Shown in pieces: positions 1-11,053 of a stretch of 20,000 bases of DNA. The notes under the pieces were generated by a model. It did not search any database. It was not told the DNA's origin and saw nothing but the letters and a program-made list of their open reading frames with translations. The position numbers and the translations under genes were made by a program. The stretch lies in IMG/VR virus record IMGVR_UViG_3300010938_000019; one strand, written 5' to 3'. Positions within the stretch are counted from its first letter, which is position 1. Each line of letters opens with the position of its first letter. This DNA is from an uncultured virus (IMG/VR IMGVR_UViG_3300010938_000019). Its lineage: Duplodnaviria > Heunggongvirae > Uroviricota > Caudoviricetes.

Positions 1-978
1 TCCGTAGAATTTCAATGACTTAGAACCTTGCTCCAATTGAGCAGAAGAGTATGAAGCATCATAGTCACGCTTAGCAGCTTGTTCAGTCAAAAGGTTCTTC
101 CAAGAACGATTTGATACTAGAACAGTTACTTCTTCTTCAGCAAGACCTTTGTCCATCATAGCGGCAACAGCTTCTTCGATTTTATCGAAAGAAAGAACTG
201 CAGCACCAGTATTAGCGTCAGATCCAACGTTAACAATGTTACCTTGGAAAAGAGGCTCAGAAGAGTTATTGATACCGAAAAGAGTTGCTTTAATTTCAGC
301 AATTCTATGCATACCAAGTTGCTCTTTGAATTCAGGAGTTACACCAGCAACTACTGCACCAGCAAAGAAAACTCTATCTGTAGCAACTACACCAGCAACT
401 GACAAGTTACCATCAGTAGTGATTCTCTTGTTTTCAAGATCAACAGCAGTGATCTTGAAAGAACCGCGTAAAGTAGCTAAAGTAGCATCGAAAATGTCGA
501 TTTCATGTCCAGTCATTCCTAACCAGATTCCAGCAGCCCATTCATAAGCTTCTACGTTAAAAGCAGCAGTACCTTGCAAAGAGTCAACTTCAGCAAGACC
601 TTTCTGTCCGTAAAGCATAGCACACTCTAATCGGTGATGCATAGACTTAAGCATGTTTCCAACGAGAAGTTTAGTACCTCTTTCGAAAGAGTTTTTACTA
701 GAAACAGCGCGAGAAGCAGCTCCAACAGAAATAGCAGAACGTAATACAATCTCGTATCCTTTGATTGTAGCGTTTTTCATTGGGAAAGAAACGATGTCAT
801 TAAGAGCAAAAGCTTCGCCTTCGCTACCGCCGTAAGTTACGCCACCTTCCAAACCGATGATTACTGGCTCGTTAAAGCTCAAACCAAGTTGCTTATCTCC
901 CTTAGAGAATTTAACAAGGTTAATGAACTTTGCCGAAGCTGGAACGAGGTCTTTAATTTGAGAAGAGTATACTTCTTT
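1..978 (-). CDS. Major capsid protein, exon 2 (runs off the left window edge)
   Basis: Frame from 978 reads KEVYSSQIKDLVPASAKFINLVKFSKGDKQLG... and is still open at position 1 (...LEQGSKSLKFYG). It lies downstream of terL-portal-scaffold and joins exon 1 in frame as LNGLF|KEVY. The product call rests on synteny and general resemblance. Confidence 0.88.
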
Positions 979-1882
979 CAGTTACTTCATATACTTAGCT
1001 AGTCGTATATGACCTGACTATATCATCCTTCTATTGAAGGGGTTGCGCTGTAAGACTTTTTTTGATACATGAGTTCTAGATATCTAAATTTATGTTGCAT
1101 AGATTTAAATTCTAATACAAAAGATCGGATTTTTTCCCATATCTTTAGTGAATCTGAATTGTTTATTTTCAAATAAGGATATTGTTTATTTCCTTTTTTT
1201 GAATAACAGATTCTTAAATTTACGTCAAAGTTGGTTTTAAACCAGTCTATTATTTTAGCCTGAGTTTCTAACGTTTGATCACAAGTGAATAATCTAAGTC
1301 TTGCTCCATAGCATTCTGTTTTATCAGCTTTTACAACACTAGCCTCTACATACCCATCATCCATTAACCATACGGCTAATGCCATTTCTGGATGTCTTAT
1401 AAAGGGAAGTATTCTTGCTAAGTCTTTCTTATTATTAGGATAAGTAAACTTTTTCCAGGATCGCATTCTCACATCAGAAACTGATAATTGAACTGCTTTT
1501 CCTTTGTGGCTATTTCTACATCTTACTTCTCTTCCGAATATCTCGGTTAGAAGTTTAGCTTTCCATGCTTGATAGTCAGCTTGTACAATTCCATGCCCTA
1601 TTGTTATAGCAGCACTGGCTTTGTTAGAAGTTAAGTGTAGACAGCCATCACCTAATAAAAGAAGTAAGCAAAGACTTCTTTTGTCTTTATTCATTAAACT
1701 CATATATACTCCAACACCAAACGGTTCAGGATAAAAAATGTCTTTAGTCGATGAACGTTCCGTATCTCTACGGCTTCGCTGCTGATTGCCCTTTTCATTA
1801 TAGCAGGGGTTCCAGCAATTCACAACCTTTTCCGACTTTAAGTCGTGAGGGGTTACACCTCAGTTGTTCTCAGATTACTCTA
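979..1882 (-). mobile_element. Group I intron (IA-like), 904 nt, in the major capsid gene
   Basis: P1: exon GTTGTTT pairs with GAACAAC, with a U.G wobble at the 5' splice site and a GTAA tetraloop. P element AATTGCTGGAA, Q AATCAGCAG, R GTTCATCGACTA, S GATGATATAGTC. P7 GACTA/TAGTC, P3 GGTTGTG/CGCAACC, P8 CCTTC/GAAGG, P9 TCATATAC/GTATATGA. Terminal G at 979. Confidence 0.95.
1023..1703 (-). CDS. Intron-encoded double-motif LAGLIDADG homing endonuclease (226 aa)
   Basis: Motifs LLLLLGDG and LAVWLMDDG; GGAG RBS before ATG at 1703. The track's upstream extension to 1823 is ribozyme core sequence. Confidence 0.9.
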   Translation of the reverse strand: MSLMNKDKRSLCLLLLLGDGCLHLTSNKASAAITIGHGIVQADYQAWKAKLLTEIFGREVRCRNSHKGKAVQLSVSDVRMRSWKKFTYPNNKKDLARILPFIRHPEMALAVWLMDDGYVEASVVKADKTECYGARLRLFTCDQTLETQAKIIDWFKTNFDVNLRICYSKKGNKQYPYLKINNSDSLKIWEKIRSFVLEFKSMQHKFRYLELMYQKKSYSATPSIEG

Positions 1883-1939
1883 AAACAACCCATTTAGTGA
1901 AGCCTGGGTGTTGGCTTTTGAAGGATCTAAATTCGCCAT
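1883..1939 (-). CDS. Major capsid protein, exon 1 (MANLDPSKANTQASLNGLF)
   Basis: ATG at 1939 preceded by AAGGGGA; 19 codons, then an in-frame TAG that is the first triplet of the intron. Confidence 0.88.
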
Positions 1940-2103
1940 ATAATGGTCCCTTTTAAAAATTAGTTTTTAAGCCTAAATAGTTAATAATACTAAGTTTTCT
2001 TACAGGGTATTTATGAATCCGTCAGGGTATCATAAAGCCGTAAAAGTAATACTACACCGTGTATTATCTAGTAGAGAGAAAGGCTTATTATTCTCTCTAC
2101 TAT

Positions 2104-2115
2104 GTAGTTGTTAAA
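2104..2115 (-). promoter_or_regulatory. Putative late promoter motif TTTAACAACTAC upstream of the capsid gene
   Basis: Identical 12-mer at 2104, 6581 and 11165, and an 11-mer at 14999; all intergenic and on the same strand. Confidence 0.7.
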
Positions 2116-2128
2116 ATTCAATAACTTA

Positions 2129-3097
2129 CTAATAAAGTCTCATGAAGTCTTCAAGTTTACGTTTTTCCTTAGGAGTTTCGTCCTTAGGAGTGTCAGTAAC
2201 TTTAGGTACTACGTTAGACACTGTATTAACAGTTTTAGCCTTCTTGGCTGCGTCTATTCTCTTCTTACGTAAACGGTCAATATTCTTTTGACCAATAAAC
2301 TCTTCAAGAAAGTCTTCTGGTAGGTTGCTTAGTAAGTCATTGATTTCTTGTCTAAGCTCTTTACGTACTTGAGGTATAACGTCTTCAGGAGTTACATCAT
2401 CAAACCCGTTTTCCATTGACCAAAGCATAGTATCAGCGATACGAGCTATAATCTTTGGAGAAGCTGAGATATCTTTATGGGCATCTAAAGCCTTGATAAT
2501 GTTATTTTCTAGGTCTTGAGCAACTTCTGTCTCAAACTTTTCACGTTTAAGCTGTTCTTCTTGCTCTTCTTTTTGTTTAAGCTTTTGTCTAGCTTCTTCT
2601 AGTTCTTTTTGTAAAGACATTCTTTCTTGTTCTTTCTTTTCAGCTTCCTTTTGTTCAGGAGTCTTACTAAGTTCTTCAATCTTCTGTTGAATTCGCATTT
2701 CTGCTAATTGGTCTGGATCTAGTCCTAGCTCAGCCAGAACATCCCAAGGATTTTCCTTCATTCGTCCAATTTCTTGAGCAAACAATCGCTTAAGTTCGGC
2801 AGCTTCATTCATTGCTTCTCTTCCTGCAGCAGCAAGTTGAAGTTCTCTGATTAGTTCTTTTTCATTATTTAAATCAATCTTCTTAGTAATGGTTTTTCCA
2901 TTAACTTTCAAGGAATACTCGCGTAGCATGTCCTTGATTTGTTGATCAGAAGCACCGTTCTTAGCAGCAGTTTCAATTGCTTCTTTAACTTCTAATACTC
3001 CATCTGATGCAGTATCTACGTCTTGCGTATCCACTATTTCTTGGGTTTCTTGAGCAGCTTCTACTGGTTGCTCTGCAGTTTGTTGTGTTTCACTCAT
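2129..3097 (-). CDS. Probable capsid scaffolding protein (322 aa)
   Basis: Acidic low-complexity N-terminus, long E/K/Q coiled coil, between portal and capsid gene; AAGGAG RBS. Confidence 0.75.
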   Translation of the reverse strand: MSETQQTAEQPVEAAQETQEIVDTQDVDTASDGVLEVKEAIETAAKNGASDQQIKDMLREYSLKVNGKTITKKIDLNNEKELIRELQLAAAGREAMNEAAELKRLFAQEIGRMKENPWDVLAELGLDPDQLAEMRIQQKIEELSKTPEQKEAEKKEQERMSLQKELEEARQKLKQKEEQEEQLKREKFETEVAQDLENNIIKALDAHKDISASPKIIARIADTMLWSMENGFDDVTPEDVIPQVRKELRQEINDLLSNLPEDFLEEFIGQKNIDRLRKKRIDAAKKAKTVNTVSNVVPKVTDTPKDETPKEKRKLEDFMRLY

Positions 3098-3129
3098 ACA
3101 TTCTCCTTGAAAATTTGTATATTTCTAAG

Positions 3130-3474
3130 TTATTCCGTCCGGTTATCGGATGGGAATTTATTGTTTACGTGTTTCTTTTGATTGTAGCCTTTTTCACAAA
3201 GACCAAATGTCCTATTACGACTCTCGTCGTTAAATCGCACACCAAGGCTTTCTAAATCTCTCTTTGCTGCACGTTTAAGTACATTCAGATTGTTTATACC
3301 TTTCTCTTTTTTTATAATGTTTAGTTTATTATGTTCGTTTCTAATTCTATAAGAAAAATTAACTACATTTATAAACACTTTATACCTAGCTCCAGTACTA
3401 GAGGATACGAATATCTTTATCGACTCATATTCCCCTTCTCTGTCTGTAGGTGCGTATCTAATTCTTGCTGACAT
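3130..3474 (-). CDS. Hypothetical basic protein (114 aa)
   Basis: Starts 2 nt after the portal stop, co-oriented; no recognised motif. Confidence 0.7.
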   Translation of the reverse strand: MSARIRYAPTDREGEYESIKIFVSSSTGARYKVFINVVNFSYRIRNEHNKLNIIKKEKGINNLNVLKRAAKRDLESLGVRFNDESRNRTFGLCEKGYNQKKHVNNKFPSDNRTE

Positions 3475-3475
3475 C

Positions 3476-6400
3476 TTAGCCGCCTAATTGTCTAGCCATT
3501 GCCTCTTGAGCTGTTTGAGGAACATCTTCAAATGGAGCCGGAGGAGTAGAAGGTTCAGGAACTGGAGGCAACTGATCCTGTATAGCTACTGACTGAGCTT
3601 GAGGATTATTCATAATATCTTGTGTATTTTGAGGAGCCTGCGCTTGAGTTGGAGGAAGTGGTTGCTGTTGTATCACTCCAAGTAGTCCTGGGTCTACAGT
3701 CTTAAGCATATCAATATGTTCTTGAATGTGCTTTAAAGTTCTTTGTAACAACTCAGGGTCTTTACGTAGAATTGGATCAGCAATTACACCTTTATGTTGA
3801 CGAATATGACTAGCATGATCGTCAGTAATAACGGCAATTACTTCATCGCCTTTAAGGAGTGCTTCATTCTCAGCTTTTATTGTATCTAGCTCATTTACTT
3901 CATCTTCCATGAAATAATCTAAGCTACCAGTATTAAGTACCATTAAGTACTTTTCTGGAGATTTAATTAATCCCATCTGCATTAGGTTTTCTGCAATCTG
4001 TGCTCTACCTGCAGTCGTATTATGGGTTACTGTAAAATCTTTTAATAAGAAATGAGGATCTTCTTTTAAACAAAATCCATAGTAGATTTCTTTATTAACT
4101 TTAGTTAGTTTAATTCCATAATTTAACCAATTTTTTTGTTTTTTACACTCTTTAGATTGTTTTCTTGGAAGTTTTGTAGGAATTCTCCATGTATCTCCTC
4201 CAATTGAAACAATGTTATATTCGTTTTCTTGTTTACTTTTTTCGGTCTGTCTTTTTAATTTTTTCCTAGATACTCTAAATCCTAAACTTCCTGCAATAAA
4301 GCATATATCGTCAGTAACTTTATTACATTTTTGAGTAAAAACAAACGTTTGGTCAACCAAGGTTCCGTCTATATCTAAAAACCCTGCTAGTATTTGAAGC
4401 CTTGTTAATTCATCGTTATACTTATAGTCAGCAGGAATGTGCTTATTTTTAATCAAATTGTACTGATTAAAATAATTCAGTACTTTGTTTCGAAGAACAC
4501 ATCCATGACTTTTTTGACTTGTTATTGTAAAAGTACTTGCTCTTCCTGAAGTATTAGATTTTCTTCTTATAAGAGCTAACCCATTATGATTAGCGTATTC
4601 TCTCCAATAATTTTCTATTTCTTTATCCATGGTGGTAATGCTAGGTTCACATCTATTACCATCTCCTAACCATGATCCTAATATGTAGGGGTCTAGAGTT
4701 ACGAACTTGTGATCAAAATTTATAGGTACTTTAAAACCCATTAAAATTCTTTGATGTCTTTCAGGAAGTTTTAAGTAATCTTTTACAGAAATGTCTATAA
4801 TTTGACCTTTTTTAACTCCATATCGAGAATCGGAAGAACAATATTTTAAAGTCATTATATGATTTTCGTTACATTTGTAAATAAAGTTTCCATTTCTATC
4901 ATGCACTTCATACATTTGTTGAAATCCTGTTCCAGCAACAGTAACGGTCTTGGGTTTAGAATCCCATCCCATTACTAAATTACCTTCGTATATATCTTCG
5001 ACTTTTTTAAATGTTCCGTCGTACATCATTACTTCTGTACCTTCCGCAAGACACGACATCAAAGCGTTACCTACGTCTACAACAACTCTAGATATGGAAC
5101 TAATATCATCACTCTTAAACTTTTCCATCTTAGTAGTTTGGCTTACTCCAGCAATAGCGATAATCCTAGGTACCTTAGCAAAGTCTTGTAATAGCTTAAC
5201 TAATCCTGTTCCAACGTCTTCTAATAACTGAATATACGATTGTTGTAAACCAGAGATGAATTGTAGAGCTTGAGATTGTACTAGAGCTAAAGCGTTTCCT
5301 GATCTTAAGGAAGCTTCTGGATTACCTCTTGCTACAGAGTTTACACCAGAAATAGTTTCCATTGTAGATTCTACTTTTTGTAAGAAATTAAATATTTCTC
5401 CTGGAGTAGCAGTAAGGTTTAATGGAGTTGGAGCACCTACTTGATTGTTATATTCAATAAAGTTAAGTCCACCTTGTAACTGAGTTACCTTTACGTCATT
5501 TCCTCTAGGATTCAAAATACTTTGAACACCAAACGCATTTTGGTTTGTCATAATAGTCGAGTAAAGACTATTAACAGTATCTTGTAAAGGAAGAAGATCA
5601 AACATCATAGAATATCCATAAGGAGTACCTAGGATGTCTGAAGGAGCAATGCGATAAATGGGAAGTTGACCATACGGCATGATAGTATCAATCAATACGC
5701 AGTCATCATGCAAGAATAGGCAGTAGTTACCCTCAGGCATTGATTCAGTTCTTTTATGGAAAAACTCATAAACCGCAACGTCTACCGTTTCATCATAAGG
5801 AGTTAACGTAGTTTTATAGCTACCTTGTTCTTTGTCCTTTGTAGGGACAGAAAGGATCTTATCTGCGAACTCAGGATACTTCTTAGCAAGATCAAACTTA
5901 TTTAAGAATGTTCTACAAAGAACCCAGTCATGTAGTTCTGGGTTTTCTTTAGTACTGTCGAATACTACGTCTAAAGGTGATAGTACGTTGAATTCAACAT
6001 CTCCTTCATGGATAGGAAACGCTTCTAGCTTATTTCCAGCTTCATCCAAAGGATTGCCTTCTTCATCATATCCGACAATAGAAGATGGATCTGGTTCGAC
6101 ATAGTCGTGAATTTCACCTCGTGTGGAATTCCACTCCATCTTCACATAGCCGGAACCTAGAACGATAGCGTATTCAACCGCTTTTTTTAAATATTTTTCT
6201 AGGCGTTTTTCTCTCATGTAGTAATCGAGAAGGTTATTTGCTAATTTAGTTTGAATTAAAGACTTACGATCTGTATTTACTGCACGAGCTTGGAATGCTG
6301 GTCTTGTTGATGTAACCATAACAAGCATGTGCTGAGCAATGTTCCTGTAATGGTTTACCGCTAGGTTTACTAGCTCACCTTGTTCTCCACCATATCCTAA

Positions 6401-6562
6401 AGAATGATCACTATTGTAATAATTACCATGATAGGCATTATATGAACGAGTCAATTTTTCTAAATAATTACTGCTATTTACACTTTTAAACCAAGCACCT
6501 GACTTGGACATTAAGTGTGCTACTTTTCTTTGGGATTCATCGGCTGCAAAATATATATCCAT
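3476..6562 (-). CDS. Portal protein with intein (1028-aa precursor, about 683 aa spliced)
   Basis: Directly follows terL; size, METISGVNSVARG motif and Q/P-rich tail fit P22/N4-like portals; GAGG RBS. Confidence 0.88.
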   Translation of the reverse strand: MDIYFAADESQRKVAHLMSKSGAWFKSVNSSNYLEKLTRSYNAYHGNYYNSDHSLGYGGEQGELVNLAVNHYRNIAQHMLVMVTSTRPAFQARAVNTDRKSLIQTKLANNLLDYYMREKRLEKYLKKAVEYAIVLGSGYVKMEWNSTRGEIHDYVEPDPSSIVGYDEEGNPLDEAGNKLEAFPIHEGDVEFNVLSPLDVVFDSTKENPELHDWVLCRTFLNKFDLAKKYPEFADKILSVPTKDKEQGSYKTTLTPYDETVDVAVYEFFHKRTESMPEGNYCLFLHDDCVLIDTIMPYGQLPIYRIAPSDILGTPYGYSMMFDLLPLQDTVNSLYSTIMTNQNAFGVQSILNPRGNDVKVTQLQGGLNFIEYNNQVGAPTPLNLTATPGEIFNFLQKVESTMETISGVNSVARGNPEASLRSGNALALVQSQALQFISGLQQSYIQLLEDVGTGLVKLLQDFAKVPRIIAIAGVSQTTKMEKFKSDDISSISRVVVDVGNALMSCLAEGTEVMMYDGTFKKVEDIYEGNLVMGWDSKPKTVTVAGTGFQQMYEVHDRNGNFIYKCNENHIMTLKYCSSDSRYGVKKGQIIDISVKDYLKLPERHQRILMGFKVPINFDHKFVTLDPYILGSWLGDGNRCEPSITTMDKEIENYWREYANHNGLALIRRKSNTSGRASTFTITSQKSHGCVLRNKVLNYFNQYNLIKNKHIPADYKYNDELTRLQILAGFLDIDGTLVDQTFVFTQKCNKVTDDICFIAGSLGFRVSRKKLKRQTEKSKQENEYNIVSIGGDTWRIPTKLPRKQSKECKKQKNWLNYGIKLTKVNKEIYYGFCLKEDPHFLLKDFTVTHNTTAGRAQIAENLMQMGLIKSPEKYLMVLNTGSLDYFMEDEVNELDTIKAENEALLKGDEVIAVITDDHASHIRQHKGVIADPILRKDPELLQRTLKHIQEHIDMLKTVDPGLLGVIQQQPLPPTQAQAPQNTQDIMNNPQAQSVAIQDQLPPVPEPSTPPAPFEDVPQTAQEAMARQLGG
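4019..5053 (-). mobile_element. Intein with LAGLIDADG endonuclease in portal (345 aa)
   Basis: N-junction ALMS|CLAEGTEVMMYDG; block B CNENHIM; LAGLIDADG blocks YILGSWLGDG and LAGFLDIDG; C-junction HFLLKDFTVTHN|T. Confidence 0.95.
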
Positions 6563-6602: not shown

Positions 6603-9143
6603 TTATTTTTTAATGTTTAAGACAGTCTTAACCCATTCCAAGGCACTATTTGAGTCCTCGTCTCTAGTAGGACTTCTAAATACATTCCGTCCTTTTAACT
6701 TTCCATATCCTTCTGGAAAAGGGTTTCTAGATTCCATTACATTTCGCACCAAATAAGAACAAGCTGGAAGCGCATCGCAGTGACCTCCACGAACTTCTCC
6801 ACTAGGTGAATCTTTTAAGTGCTTAAAATCGCTACGAGTTTTATTCCACTGGGCATTCTCTAAATGATATATAAGAGTCTTGCATCTTTCGTGTATTTCT
6901 ATCTTACCATTACTAATCCACATACGCAGATTGTTAATGGCAGCATCTCTATTATCTTTTTTTGTAGGAATAAACTGTATTTCATGTAATCGACTTAGAT
7001 CGTTAATAAGCTTTAGATCATTATCCATGATCCTTAAGTAAGGTTGGTTAACTTCTCCAGTTTGTTCATCAAGGAATCTTATAGACTCTATTTCTTTAAT
7101 ACGCTTTGCTAAATGTTGAGTGGTCATTTCAGGACCATTCATTACAAGCTCGTCAATAATCTTTAACTTAGCTTCTCTAAAGTCATAAACTGCAAACAAT
7201 GCCACAGTTAAGTCTTTAAACCCTACGTCCATTGAAACATAAGCATCATAGAATGAAGGCTTTTCTACCATAGGCTTTACAATATCAAACTTGTGTTCAT
7301 AAAATTCTGGAACTACAGTGGATTCAGAAGACTTTGGTATTTCTACAAGATACTCGCATTTGAATTTAGGATTTTCTACTCCACCAGGATAACGAGCAAT
7401 AACTTTCTGTATCTTTTCTGGAGTAAGCATTGGAGAATCATAGATAGTATACTTTACTATGTTACCATCTGCTTCAGCAGGTTGAACAAATGACTCATGG
7501 AACTCATGGTTAGGGTCTTTAAAGTTAGGAGTAGATGCTAATACTAGTTTACCGTTAGTAGTATCTGTAGTAGGAAGCATAATACTATTAACGACGTAGT
7601 CTAAATCATCGCAAAATCCTGCTTCATCTATGATACAAAGATTCGCGTACCCTCCGCGAAGATTTTCGGCATTACCAGAATCAGTTCCTGCTATTTGTAT
7701 CTCTGATCCATTCTTGAATCTAAAGACTTTTTCTTGAGCAAGCCACTCTGGACGTAATTCTTCTGGACAATCTGCAAGTATTTCTCTCATGATGGGACGA
7801 ATGATAGTACGAACCATTGTTTGCTGAGGACACGCATATTTTACAATGGCATTTGGTATCTTTACACAAGTTTCTGTAGCAAGAGTACAAAGAACGTACG
7901 AATTATGAGTGACTAATCCATTTCCTGTTAGAAATAAGTGATCAGGTGTATCTATTCCTATGTCGTAAGTTTTAGCTTTGTATTTTTTTCCTAATTTAAT
8001 TCCAACACTGTCAGGTCTAGTATTGTTTTCTAGACAATTTTCATATTCTTCTTTCCATTTTTTTCTAGGAACCACTAAATATTCATTTAATTCTTTTAAT
8101 GCTCTTTTTGCATAGATATTACAAGAAATTCTTACTGTATAACAAGGACCATTTACGTATTTTTCTCTATTATCTGCCGAATAGTTACACTCATATTGCC
8201 ATAAAAACTTGTAAAGATACTTTACTACTTTTATCATACTTAACGACTGACTATGAAACTCAATAAATAATCTATTTTTTTTAAATTGAATACTTCCGTC
8301 AGTATCTATTAGTCCTGCTAATAAATTTAATAACGATTCCCTATCCCAATTTTTTATAACATCTATATCAATTACTTTTTCGTGAGCGTATCTTCCTTTG
8401 ACCCAATCATTGTAATAATTACAGTGAACCTTATTTGGATATGTCTGTCCTTTTCTTACTTTATTTTCCGAATTAGAAATGACCCAAGTATAATTATTTT
8501 CGCTTTGTCTATAAACCATTTTAGCATTTAAAACTTTAGCCACTTTGTTAGGGATGATTTCATTTTCCGATGAAATATGAATATTATTTATTCCTTGTCT
8601 AGAGCAACCATCTCCAAGCAATGCACCTATGGCGTACGCATGCGATTCATTAACTAAACCTCCTGGAGCCTGTATAAATTCTCTAACTATTTTATCTCTT
8701 ATTGTTAATTCTTTTGTCGTTTTGTATCTATATACAAACTTTTCATTTTTATAACAAGTTTTTACTAACCATCTATGATCTTCAGTAGCTCTTTCTATTA
8801 CTATATTATTATGAGTTAATTCAACTACCTCTTTTTCACCTTGAACATGAACCTGCTCAACTTTAACTATAGTTGTAGAATTAGTTTCCGTAGAATAGGC
8901 ATAGACTTTGTCACCGACTTTTATGTCTTTAATTAAAACTAATCCAGATGGTGTAAGTATCTCTGTGTCTTCATGTAGACATTTTCCTATTCTTCGGGAA
9001 CATAGCACAGTAGAAATTGGTTTATCATTATCAATGACGTACTTATGAATATCCTTTTGGATACCTTTCAGTTTCCAAGAAAGCTCACCTAGTTCCCATA
9101 GCTTTTGTTTTGCTGAATTTACGTCAATAGGTTTCTTAGACAT
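6603..9143 (-). CDS. terL: Terminase large subunit with intein (846-aa precursor, about 486 aa spliced)
   Basis: Reconstituted Walker A SRRIGK|S, Walker B LCIIDEAG, coupling motif LASTP, RNase H-like nuclease YVSMDVG...HCDAL. Confidence 0.95.
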   Translation of the reverse strand: MSKKPIDVNSAKQKLWELGELSWKLKGIQKDIHKYVIDNDKPISTVLCSRRIGKCLHEDTEILTPSGLVLIKDIKVGDKVYAYSTETNSTTIVKVEQVHVQGEKEVVELTHNNIVIERATEDHRWLVKTCYKNEKFVYRYKTTKELTIRDKIVREFIQAPGGLVNESHAYAIGALLGDGCSRQGINNIHISSENEIIPNKVAKVLNAKMVYRQSENNYTWVISNSENKVRKGQTYPNKVHCNYYNDWVKGRYAHEKVIDIDVIKNWDRESLLNLLAGLIDTDGSIQFKKNRLFIEFHSQSLSMIKVVKYLYKFLWQYECNYSADNREKYVNGPCYTVRISCNIYAKRALKELNEYLVVPRKKWKEEYENCLENNTRPDSVGIKLGKKYKAKTYDIGIDTPDHLFLTGNGLVTHNSYVLCTLATETCVKIPNAIVKYACPQQTMVRTIIRPIMREILADCPEELRPEWLAQEKVFRFKNGSEIQIAGTDSGNAENLRGGYANLCIIDEAGFCDDLDYVVNSIMLPTTDTTNGKLVLASTPNFKDPNHEFHESFVQPAEADGNIVKYTIYDSPMLTPEKIQKVIARYPGGVENPKFKCEYLVEIPKSSESTVVPEFYEHKFDIVKPMVEKPSFYDAYVSMDVGFKDLTVALFAVYDFREAKLKIIDELVMNGPEMTTQHLAKRIKEIESIRFLDEQTGEVNQPYLRIMDNDLKLINDLSRLHEIQFIPTKKDNRDAAINNLRMWISNGKIEIHERCKTLIYHLENAQWNKTRSDFKHLKDSPSGEVRGGHCDALPACSYLVRNVMESRNPFPEGYGKLKGRNVFRSPTRDEDSNSALEWVKTVLNIKK
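7902..8981 (-). mobile_element. Intein with LAGLIDADG endonuclease in the terL P-loop (360 aa)
   Basis: GK|CLHEDTEILT; block B ATEDHRW; AIGALLGDG and LAGLIDTDG; YDIGID...HLFLTGNGLVTHN|S. Confidence 0.96.
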
Positions 9144-10007: not shown

Positions 10008-10178
10008 TTATTTCTTTTTTGAAATTCTTTCTTTTAATTTACCAAAAGCGTACTTACCTTTGTTTCCCTTAGTCATTTCTTTAGCTACGTCCTTGCTAAC
10101 TCCTGCTTTCTTTGCAAATTCAGGATTATTCTCTATAGCTTTAAAAAACTTAAAAGCGGCTTTACTCTTTACTGGCAT
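10008..10178 (-). CDS. Small basic protein (56 aa, not in ORF track)
   Basis: MPVKSKAAFKFFKAIENNPEFAKKAGVSKDVAKEMTKGNKGKYAFGKLKERISKKK; overlaps the HNH stop; resembles the MPxKS..NPEFAKK small phage proteins (from memory). Confidence 0.75.
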   Translation of the reverse strand: MPVKSKAAFKFFKAIENNPEFAKKAGVSKDVAKEMTKGNKGKYAFGKLKERISKKK

Positions 10179-10758
10179 TTCTTTTATCCATTTCTAAGTT
10201 TATTTTAATTATCTCGTAGCCCAATGATCTATTATTGTCAAATAAATGATGGTGATTTGGACATAAGGGTGAAGTATTCTTGTAACTTAAGACTCCACCT
10301 TTAGAAGCTGGAATTATATGTGCAACTTCTACAATCCTATCAAATCCGCATATACAACAATTTTTATAGTCATCACGTTTTAATAATTTATTTTTTATAG
10401 AACTATAAGATTTTCCACCGTCTGCGTATCTGCGAAACTTTATTTGGTTTAAATAACCTCCAACAGTGCCGGAAGGAATTCCCATCAATTCGGCTATTTC
10501 TCTATTAGTTTTCCCCCCAGTAGCATATTTATAACATAACTGTCTTTTAGATCTTCTTTCAGGATCTATTTTAATAAATTTTCTAGAACATTCGACAGAG
10601 CAACACTTGGCTTTTAAAACTCTGTGAGGAAATACCTTAAATTCTTTATTACAATATTTACAATTAACAGATATACGAGGTTTTTTATTATGAGGAATCA
10701 TTCCTTTTTTAAAAGAAGTAGAGTTATGTTTTGGATGTTTTTTTTCTACTTCAAACAT
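10162..10758 (-). CDS. Free-standing HNH endonuclease with NUMOD-like, Zn-finger and HTH modules
   Basis: CCICG...AHIIPASKGG...N..PLCPNHH (HNH); FKKGMIPHNK; CKYC...CSVEC; NREIAELMGIPSGTV. Likely start is ATG 10758, just after the upstream stop. Confidence 0.88.
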   Translation of the reverse strand: MFEVEKKHPKHNSTSFKKGMIPHNKKPRISVNCKYCNKEFKVFPHRVLKAKCCSVECSRKFIKIDPERRSKRQLCYKYATGGKTNREIAELMGIPSGTVGGYLNQIKFRRYADGGKSYSSIKNKLLKRDDYKNCCICGFDRIVEVAHIIPASKGGVLSYKNTSPLCPNHHHLFDNNRSLGYEIIKINLEMDKRNASKE

Positions 10759-10762
10759 ACTA

Positions 10763-11053
10763 TCAGTCTTCTCCTCTAGGTCTTGTAATTTTAGGACTAT
10801 TCTTAGACCAAAGAGCTTTACATGCCCAGTAACGAGCACTCATTTTATCCTTAGCTTGAGCACAATTGTGTCTAGCTTTAAAGTTCTTGCGAGCTTTATC
10901 TGAATAATTAGACTTCATGTTTGCATCACCAAAATGAACAAGTTTTTCTTGTCCATCTTGACAAGCCTTTACCATCTTCTTCTTTTCAGGTTTAGAAGAG
11001 GGTACGGGCTTATTGCATTTTAGTCTTTTTTTAATTTCTGACCAATCTGCCAT
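10763..11053 (-). CDS. Conserved small basic viral protein (VHFG...RKNFKARHNC...YW family)
   Basis: GAGG RBS; first gene after the late motif at 11165; motif pattern recalled from uncharacterised virus proteins. Confidence 0.75.
   Translation of the reverse strand: MADWSEIKKRLKCNKPVPSSKPEKKKMVKACQDGQEKLVHFGDANMKSNYSDKARKNFKARHNCAQAKDKMSARYWACKALWSKNSPKITRPRGED

Follow-up and report, generated by a model that had tools for sequence, protein, structure and literature searches.

The stretch of DNA analysed here, which we call the window, comprises 20,000 nucleotides and covers bases 55109-75108 of IMGVR_UViG_3300010938_000019, the IMG/VR record of an uncultured virus of the Caudoviricetes, which is 81,833 bp long and carries direct terminal repeats. 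On its minus strand lies a major capsid gene that is interrupted after its nineteenth codon, and it is this interruption, at 979-1882, that we consider with high confidence to be a mobile group I intron within a capsid gene of the HK97 fold. The first exon (1883-1939, minus strand) consists of the ATG and 18 further codons, MANLDPSKANTQASLNGLF, and is matched by the N-termini of the intron-less homologues P0003, P0005, and P0010. It is followed by the 904 nucleotides of the intron (979-1882, minus strand), with UAG as its first triplet and G979 as its last base, which is supported by a match to the Rfam group I model RF00028, by its absence from intron-less contigs, and by homologous introns at the same site. 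The second exon (1-978, minus strand; KEVYSSQIKDLVP…) opens at 978 with KEVYSSQ and exits the window; the whole exon has 407 codons (L001, 1258-2478), so that the spliced capsid protein, with the 19 codons of exon 1, has 426 amino acids. The first intron triplet (1882-1880) is a TAG in frame with exon 1, and the frame of exon 2 is closed upstream by an in-frame TAA at 984-982, its first possible start being a TTG at 882. It is at this TTG that the gene call of the database, P0002, begins, with 375 amino acids that cover 92% of exon 2. The original prediction, made from the letters of this DNA alone, had expected automatic annotation to truncate the N-terminus of the capsid protein in this way, and exon 1 at 1939-1883, the adjoining in-frame TAG, and the G at 979 all lie where it had placed them, so that its observation is confirmed.

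The spliced frame LNGLF|KEVY that had been proposed is also correct, given that the nearest full-length intron-less homologues (P0003, P0005, and P0010, of 425-434 amino acids) align continuously across the junction, reading MAT(I/L)DPSKANTQ(S/A)SLNGL(F/Y)KE(S/V)Y…, and K20 does not vary among 40 aligned homologues, L15 and N16 being nearly invariant. The exon-2 protein has 853 relatives in the database with an expectation value (E) of at most 0.001 among 8000 candidates scored. At the nucleotide level, Logan contigs of four public runs, all of them DNA contigs, were aligned to positions 1-2200 of the window. In contigs of the runs X1 and X4, which come from two different studies, position 978 is joined to 1884 with one substituted base between them and exactly 979-1882 absent, in flanks that match the window at roughly 92-97%. 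Because these contigs lack precisely the intron, close relatives of this phage hold coexisting intron-plus and intron-less alleles. The last codon of exon 1 is TTC in the X1 and X4 alleles and TTT in the window, and it is thus at position 1883 (minus strand) that the intron-less alleles have a C where the intron allele has the U of a U.G pair in the ribozyme helix P1; this difference could be the result of co-conversion, or it could be neutral. Other intron-less relatives have T or C at the end of this codon, or else TAT or TAC codons.

Judged by its sequence and its predicted pairings, the insertion is a group I intron. The last seven nucleotides of exon 1, GUUGUUU (1889-1883), pair in P1 with the internal guide sequence GAACAAC (1863-1869, minus strand), which we located by folding and covariation and whose G1869 pairs with the last exon U, forming a U.G at the splice site. 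We compared five introns inserted at the same site, namely that of the window, those of the loci L084, L054, and L060, which likewise contain an open reading frame (ORF), and that of L003, another contig with a 78%-identical capsid gene, where an ORF-less intron of 333 nucleotides lies at the same codon, scores 68.5 bits with RF00028, and has its core and 3′ end in common with the window intron. Over these five introns, P1 was observed to have compensatory changes in three columns that track the own exon of each phage, and the U.G stands in the splice column of four of them, the fifth, L054, having its junction shifted by one nucleotide. In L054 (3066-3074 and 3996-4003), the junction lies one base upstream, CACUU|…G|C AAA, and splits the Phe codon after its second base, the protein still reading F-K.

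The remaining helices follow on the same minus strand. The P2 hairpin (1862-1846) is seen in the minimum free energy (MFE) fold, in the consensus fold, and in base changes over the five introns, and the P2.1 hairpin (1845-1833) in the MFE fold. The 5′ strand of P3, GGUUGUG (1821-1827), forms seven of seven pairs with its 3′ strand, CGCAACC (1041-1047, read 1047-1041 in the pairing), and the helix covaries: GGUUGUG/CGCAACC, UCUGGUG/CGCCAGA, UCUCGUG/CGCGAGA, and CUCUGUG/CGCAGAG are each fully paired, and UCCUGUG/CUCAGGA of L003 is paired in six of seven positions. The P4-P5-P6/P6a domain, with the P and Q motifs AAUUGCUGG and AAUCAGCAGC (1755-1817), is supported by RF00028 and by both the consensus and the MFE folds, P4, P5, and P6 appearing in the former. 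RF00028 and the five-intron comparison also place the R motif GUUCAUCGACU (1746-1756), which contains the 5′ strand of P7, GACU. Towards the 3′ end, there follow the P8 hairpin CCUUC-AAUA-GAAGG (1027-1040), the S motif GAUAUAGUC (1016-1024; joining region J8/7 plus the 3′ strand of P7) placed by the five-intron comparison, and the P9 hairpin of 8 bp (987-1012), in which a U-A pair is swapped to A-U with respect to L003. All five introns possess the R and S motifs together with hairpins at the places of P8 and P9, the sequences of these equivalent hairpins differing from intron to intron. The MFE fold of the 5′ half of the intron yields P1, P2, P2.1, P4, P5, and P6a with z = -3.0, and none of 200 shuffles folded as well. 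The P1 with its U.G, P3, P7, P8, P9, the P, Q, R, and S motifs, and the terminal G that had been read by eye are therefore present, as judged from folds and from covariation over five introns. Between P7 and P3′ there are 50 nucleotides in L003, 698 in the window, and 698-727 in the ORF-carrying introns, and in the 50-nucleotide stretch of L003 two small hairpins are visible by eye. Subgroup IA2 is defined by extra elements, P7.1 and P7.2, between P7 and P3′, and we tentatively regard the arrangement found here as phage-type IA2.

It is between P7 and P3′ where the endonuclease gene is housed (1023-1703, minus strand), with 226 codons plus a TGA and a GGAG five nucleotides before its ATG. The ORF matches the Pfam family PF03161 (LAGLIDADG_2) over residues 15-185 with 60 bits, for a cut-off of 25, and E 3.7e-16. 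Both of its LAGLIDADG helices terminate in an acidic residue, and their motifs, LGDG (G18, D19, G20) and MDDG (D115, D116, G117), do not vary among 25 aligned homologues. Its AlphaFold model, with a mean predicted local distance difference test score (pLDDT) of 93.2, finds I-SceI (E 1.2e-11) and I-WcaI as the best matches among PDB structures, with probability 1.00. By sequence, 187 of 250 candidates are related to the endonuclease at E ≤ 0.001; a search of PDB sequences with it returned chance-level matches only (E about 0.7), and a tblastn search of GenBank phages returned only matches of 24-27% identity in three records. The ORF is therefore predicted, from its motifs and its modelled fold, to encode a monomeric two-motif LAGLIDADG enzyme with an I-SceI-like, double-domain alpha-beta-beta-alpha-beta-beta-alpha fold, which bears out the earlier claim that the intron carries a LAGLIDADG gene.

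The 3′ end of the ORF overlaps P3′, P8, and J8/7. At 1023-1060 (minus strand), the P3′ and S motifs of the ribozyme are translated into the conserved C-terminus of the endonuclease family (…YQ…QR…), and in longer homologues of the endonuclease the S motif GAUGAUAUAGUC is translated as DDIV. Since the S motif is read as DDIV, the conservation of this C-terminus would be in part an RNA constraint, and the last 20 or so codons of the endonuclease would, from their sequence, double as ribozyme P3′, P8, and J8/7.

The interrupted gene is, by profile and by modelled fold, a major capsid gene of the HK97 type. PHROG 14242 (‘major head protein’) matches exon 2 at E 9.5e-8 and P0003 at E 9.5e-10. The fold was examined on a model of P0003, an 86%-identical intron-less homologue standing in for the spliced protein of the window; this model (pLDDT 81.7, predicted template modelling score 0.82) matches the capsid proteins of SU10, Pa223, A-1(L), and HK97, with a best E of 2.6e-10 for SU10, and places the exon junction inside an N-terminal helix (residues 6-23). 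Against GenBank phages, tblastn with exon 2 found a single phage only, at 27% identity. The profile match, the HK97 fold of the homologue model, and the position of the gene in the head module agree with its original identification as the major capsid gene.

Regarding the distribution of the insertion, we found 120 IMG/VR loci with relatives of this capsid protein and kept 80, in 76 of which tblastn mapped the insertion site. Eight of the 80 capsid loci are split (L012, which is the contig of L003, L054, L060, L061, L062, L066, L084, and L087). The site described here holds an intron in four of these (L012, L054, L060, and L084) and is uninterrupted in 74 of the 80, the remaining two being truncated by the ends of their contigs; the other insertions lie near codons 47 and 60-62 of the capsid gene. 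Starting from the endonuclease family instead, all 19 IMG/VR loci (including L096; three of them are the contigs of L054, L060, and L084) have a capsid exon 2 beginning K-x-x-Y… at 28-53 nucleotides past the S motif, even though some of these capsid proteins are only about 31-35% identical to the queries. This strict fidelity of an endonuclease family to one capsid codon, in 19 of 19 IMG/VR loci, is what is new here. The DNA consensus of the intron-less site is …TTt|AAaGAa..TAtGc.

We suggest keeping in mind that several points weigh against this reading. A default Rfam search at the gathering threshold returns nothing in the window. The Infernal search with a group I model that the original prediction had proposed as a check does give a significant RF00028 match (E 3.9e-9 on a 1351-base region, and E 5.6e-11 with the whole genome), although its 42.5 bits fall below the gathering score of 50 bits; this shortfall arises because the 681-nucleotide ORF parts the well-aligned 5′ half (P1 to P7) from the 3′ half. 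The RF00028 alignment moreover forces the 3′ half of the intron into the ORF, and P3′, P8, P7′, and P9 were placed by our own comparison and not by a curated model. MAFFT with RNAalifold on the 3′ ends found no consensus structure, the hairpins being misaligned, and the 3′ segments of the five introns were folded one by one. A P10 helix was sought by eye and no convincing one was found. The overlap of the ORF with P3′, P8, and J8/7 means that translation could disturb the folding of the ribozyme. Lastly, none of the public runs listed for window 1-2200 is on record as RNA, and because no RNA run holds the sequence, the splicing of this particular intron is only inferred. With these points considered, the interpretation of the original prediction is nonetheless supported.

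Catalysis, the efficiency of splicing, and cleavage by the endonuclease are accordingly given here as a proposed sequence of events. A late pre-mRNA would contain the 57-nucleotide exon 1, the intron, and exon 2, and the ribozyme would fold within it, with the guide sequence bound in P1 to the final seven bases of the exon and the U.G marking the splice site. Free guanosine would then attack this site, the terminal G979 would dock in P7, and exon ligation would give …LNGLF-KEVY… and the 426-residue capsid protein. The in-frame UAG that forms the first intron triplet would keep ribosomes out of the ribozyme, an early in-frame stop being noted for phage introns in passages of a review (PMC3984707). 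The ORF would be translated from its own Shine-Dalgarno sequence and ATG into the I-SceI-like enzyme. When intron-plus and intron-less phages infect together, this enzyme probably cleaves the intron-less capsid allele site-specifically near TTY|AAAGA, as indirectly indicated by the one conserved capsid site of its 19 loci and by the site consensus, whereupon repair would copy the intron in.

An alternative is that the intron is real but not autonomous, so that splicing would be efficient only with the help of a protein, for example a host chaperone or the LAGLIDADG protein of the intron itself in the role of a maturase. Some LAGLIDADG maturases (bI3 maturase, 2ab5, and I-AniI, 1p8k) are indeed structural neighbours of the endonuclease model, and the 698-nucleotide insertion between P7 and P3′ needs to be bridged for the core to form; however, the ORF-less homologue of L003 has a full core at the same site without any intron protein, and the invariance of both catalytic motifs in 25 homologues argues for selection on nuclease activity, so that we hold a dependence of this kind to be unlikely. 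We give far less credence to an insertion that no longer splices, in which case a truncated capsid protein would be made from the TTG at 882, with or without the 19-residue peptide, as in the split nrdA gene of Aeromonas phage Aeh1. The automatic call P0002 (375 amino acids) does begin at this TTG, and Aeh1 provides a known case of a phage insertion that does not splice, as cited in passages of PMC7344957. Nevertheless, such a truncation removes residues 1-51 with the invariant K20, Y23, L30, K36, F43, K48, and G51, while the ribozyme core and the guide are intact and covary with the exon, the junction is exactly in frame, and the same architecture is found in 19 of 19 loci. An assembly artefact, in which a chimeric contig of this metagenome-assembled record would have put an unrelated intron and endonuclease fragment into the capsid gene, has a negligible probability, since 18 other, independent IMG/VR contigs show the same architecture, the guide sequence fits the own exon of this phage, and the intron boundaries are exact with respect to the intron-less alleles.

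Returning to the mobile group I intron, one might go further and imagine an old lineage of intron plus LAGLIDADG gene, bound to one codon of one capsid family, which has followed, or repeatedly re-invaded, capsids that diverged to about 31-35% identity, its guide being re-tuned to each host exon; we put this forward as a doubtful, although not negligible, conjecture. In the same conjecture, the region of the capsid gene encoding the N-arm would be a landing pad with multiple sites, L060 having as many as three insertions there over some 62 codons. In that contig (L060, 1048-4000), the first of three interruptions in the first ~62 capsid codons is the LAGLIDADG intron at codon 14 (site A), the second follows …QPGN and scores 98.8 bits in Rfam, and the third is an insert of ~0.9 kb before FTYGG with no Rfam match at E<0.01. 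The L003 sequence (1637-3000; contig of L012) has two capsid introns, the first being the ORF-less one at codon 19 and the second, of ~1.36 kb near codons 62-70, carrying a GIY-YIG gene (PF01541, E 2.2e-11) with an RF00028 score of 21 bits.

An exact 20-nucleotide piece of the core of the window intron is also present in five other contigs. It lies in unrelated capsid families in L006 (SU10_MCP, with three Rfam hits) and in L009 and L010 (Phage_cap_E), the latter with six Rfam hits within about 3.1 kb. L011 has the same Rfam scores as L006, and in L007 the piece lies in a family A DNA polymerase gene.

Introns in phage capsid genes have been described before, and the rarity implied by the original prediction is tempered accordingly: passages of Pope et al. 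2013 (PMC3706429) report for the capsid gene of mycobacteriophage LittleE an intron with a LAGLIDADG-type gene whose splicing was demonstrated by reverse transcription PCR and N-terminal protein sequencing, and, in our own sample, the eight split loci among 80 related capsid loci point in the same direction. The same passages cite a capsid intron of lactococcal phage Tuc2009, and a literature search for phage capsid introns returned no cases beyond LittleE and this citation. From its features as described there, the LittleE intron resembles that of the window in its location in the major capsid gene, its size (roughly 0.8-0.9 kb in both), the U before the 5′ splice site, the terminal G, and the LAGLIDADG-type gene. 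The passages on LittleE place its endonuclease gene on the opposite strand, whereas in the window the gene shares the strand of the intron and lies between P7 and P3′; there, its authors call the intron type unclear, ‘most likely a group I’, whereas the ribozyme core of the window is well defined; and LittleE is a temperate siphovirus of 106-117 kb with a high-GC (guanine plus cytosine) Gram-positive host, whereas the phage of the window is uncultured, has a genome of 82 kb, and has its relatives in metagenomes from aquatic sources.

Concerning the core, 111 GenBank phage records (33 of Staphylococcus, 26 of Salmonella, 21 of Escherichia, and others) contain stretches with 75-83% identity to that of the window from P3 to P7. 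The Salmonella and Escherichia matches listed (phages of ~84-88 kb) lie mostly under DNA polymerase genes, and among the 25 GenBank core matches listed, none coincides with an annotated capsid gene. Phage introns of the T4 td and Staphylococcus Twort type, which belong to subgroup IA2, have in common with that of the window the core, the extra elements between P7 and P3′, the early in-frame stop, and a peripheral loop that may or may not hold an endonuclease ORF. According to passages of the review PMC3984707, phage introns mostly encode GIY-YIG, HNH, PD-(D/E)xK, or EDxHD enzymes, and those of the T4 td and Twort type usually carry HNH or GIY-YIG genes, in contrast to the LAGLIDADG gene of the window; for this reason LAGLIDADG is the less usual choice, though not a new one.

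The predicted enzyme itself compares with I-SceI and I-WcaI (PDB 3oor, 1r7m, and 6x1j) at E 1.2e-11 and a template modelling score of 0.62 over about 215 aligned columns, and, like them, is a single chain of about 225 amino acids with two LAGLIDADG motifs. Their sequence identity is 18-20% only, and I-SceI and I-WcaI come from introns of yeast mitochondrial rRNA, whereas the enzyme of the window comes from a phage capsid intron. In metagenomic jumbo gut phages, passages of PMC12880540 report metatranscriptome reads that back the splicing of 37 of 76 predicted introns. As described there, these phages are metagenome-derived, like the window, and group I introns interrupt terL and other essential late genes in them; their introns, however, average about 206 nucleotides and have mostly stand-alone endonucleases, unlike that of the window, and the passages of this source describe no intron-endonuclease lineage specific to capsid genes.

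The intron is thus a selfish element of a kind already known, and no current view is overturned; its additional interest lies in the site fidelity, the guide co-evolving with the exon, the dual-coding 3′ end, and the crowded head genes. On the practical side, gene callers shorten this capsid protein to 375 amino acids instead of 426, related capsid proteins are truncated likewise (the calls for P0006 and P0008 take the first internal ATG as start), and such calls distort capsid phylogenies and structure predictions in an abundant group of aquatic phages of roughly 80 kb. On the biological side, the most heavily expressed late phage gene can depend on RNA splicing, and a single endonuclease-intron lineage can stay loyal to one capsid codon across very divergent phages. 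With ORF-plus and ORF-less forms, intron-less alleles, and many guide variants at hand, this family offers a test system for homing, for co-conversion, and for the interplay between translation and folding.

With respect to the genome setting, the minus strand reads in order terL, portal, a small ORF, a scaffold-like gene, and the capsid gene, and megablast of window 1-3200 against GenBank phages gave no match. Profile scans identify the large terminase gene terL (6606-9143, minus strand; 846 amino acids) and the portal gene (3479-6562, minus strand; 1028 amino acids, P22_portal / SU10_portal), and the scaffold-like gene (2132-3097, minus strand), which encodes an acidic protein of 322 amino acids, is named for its position. 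The portal protein bears an intein, with Hom_end_hint at residues 504-573 and Hom_end at 719-790, whose boundaries, C…HN|T, were judged by eye. The terL product, too, probably bears an intein, since its LAGLIDADG_3 domain exceeds the cut-off with 29 bits and a weak match to Hint lies close to its N-terminus. If the terL intein is real, then terL, portal, and capsid are three head genes in a row each with a self-splicing selfish element. As part of the doubtful conjecture of an old lineage, the dual-coding 3′ end of the endonuclease gene, the landing pad in the N-arm region, and the inteins of terL and portal would together point to head genes as a battleground on which relatives infecting together shut out one another's alleles, and splicing might also gate the timing or the amount of capsid synthesis. 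A free-standing HNH endonuclease gene (HNH_2, PHROG 1271) is found at 10165-10839 (minus strand), upstream of the terminase region. Between the scaffold-like gene and capsid exon 1, an inverted repeat with a perfect stem (…CUAGUAGAGAGAA…UUCUCUCUACUAG…) lies at 2067-2104; it came to light only because both strands happened to match mir-14 by chance, and may be a terminator or a processing hairpin.

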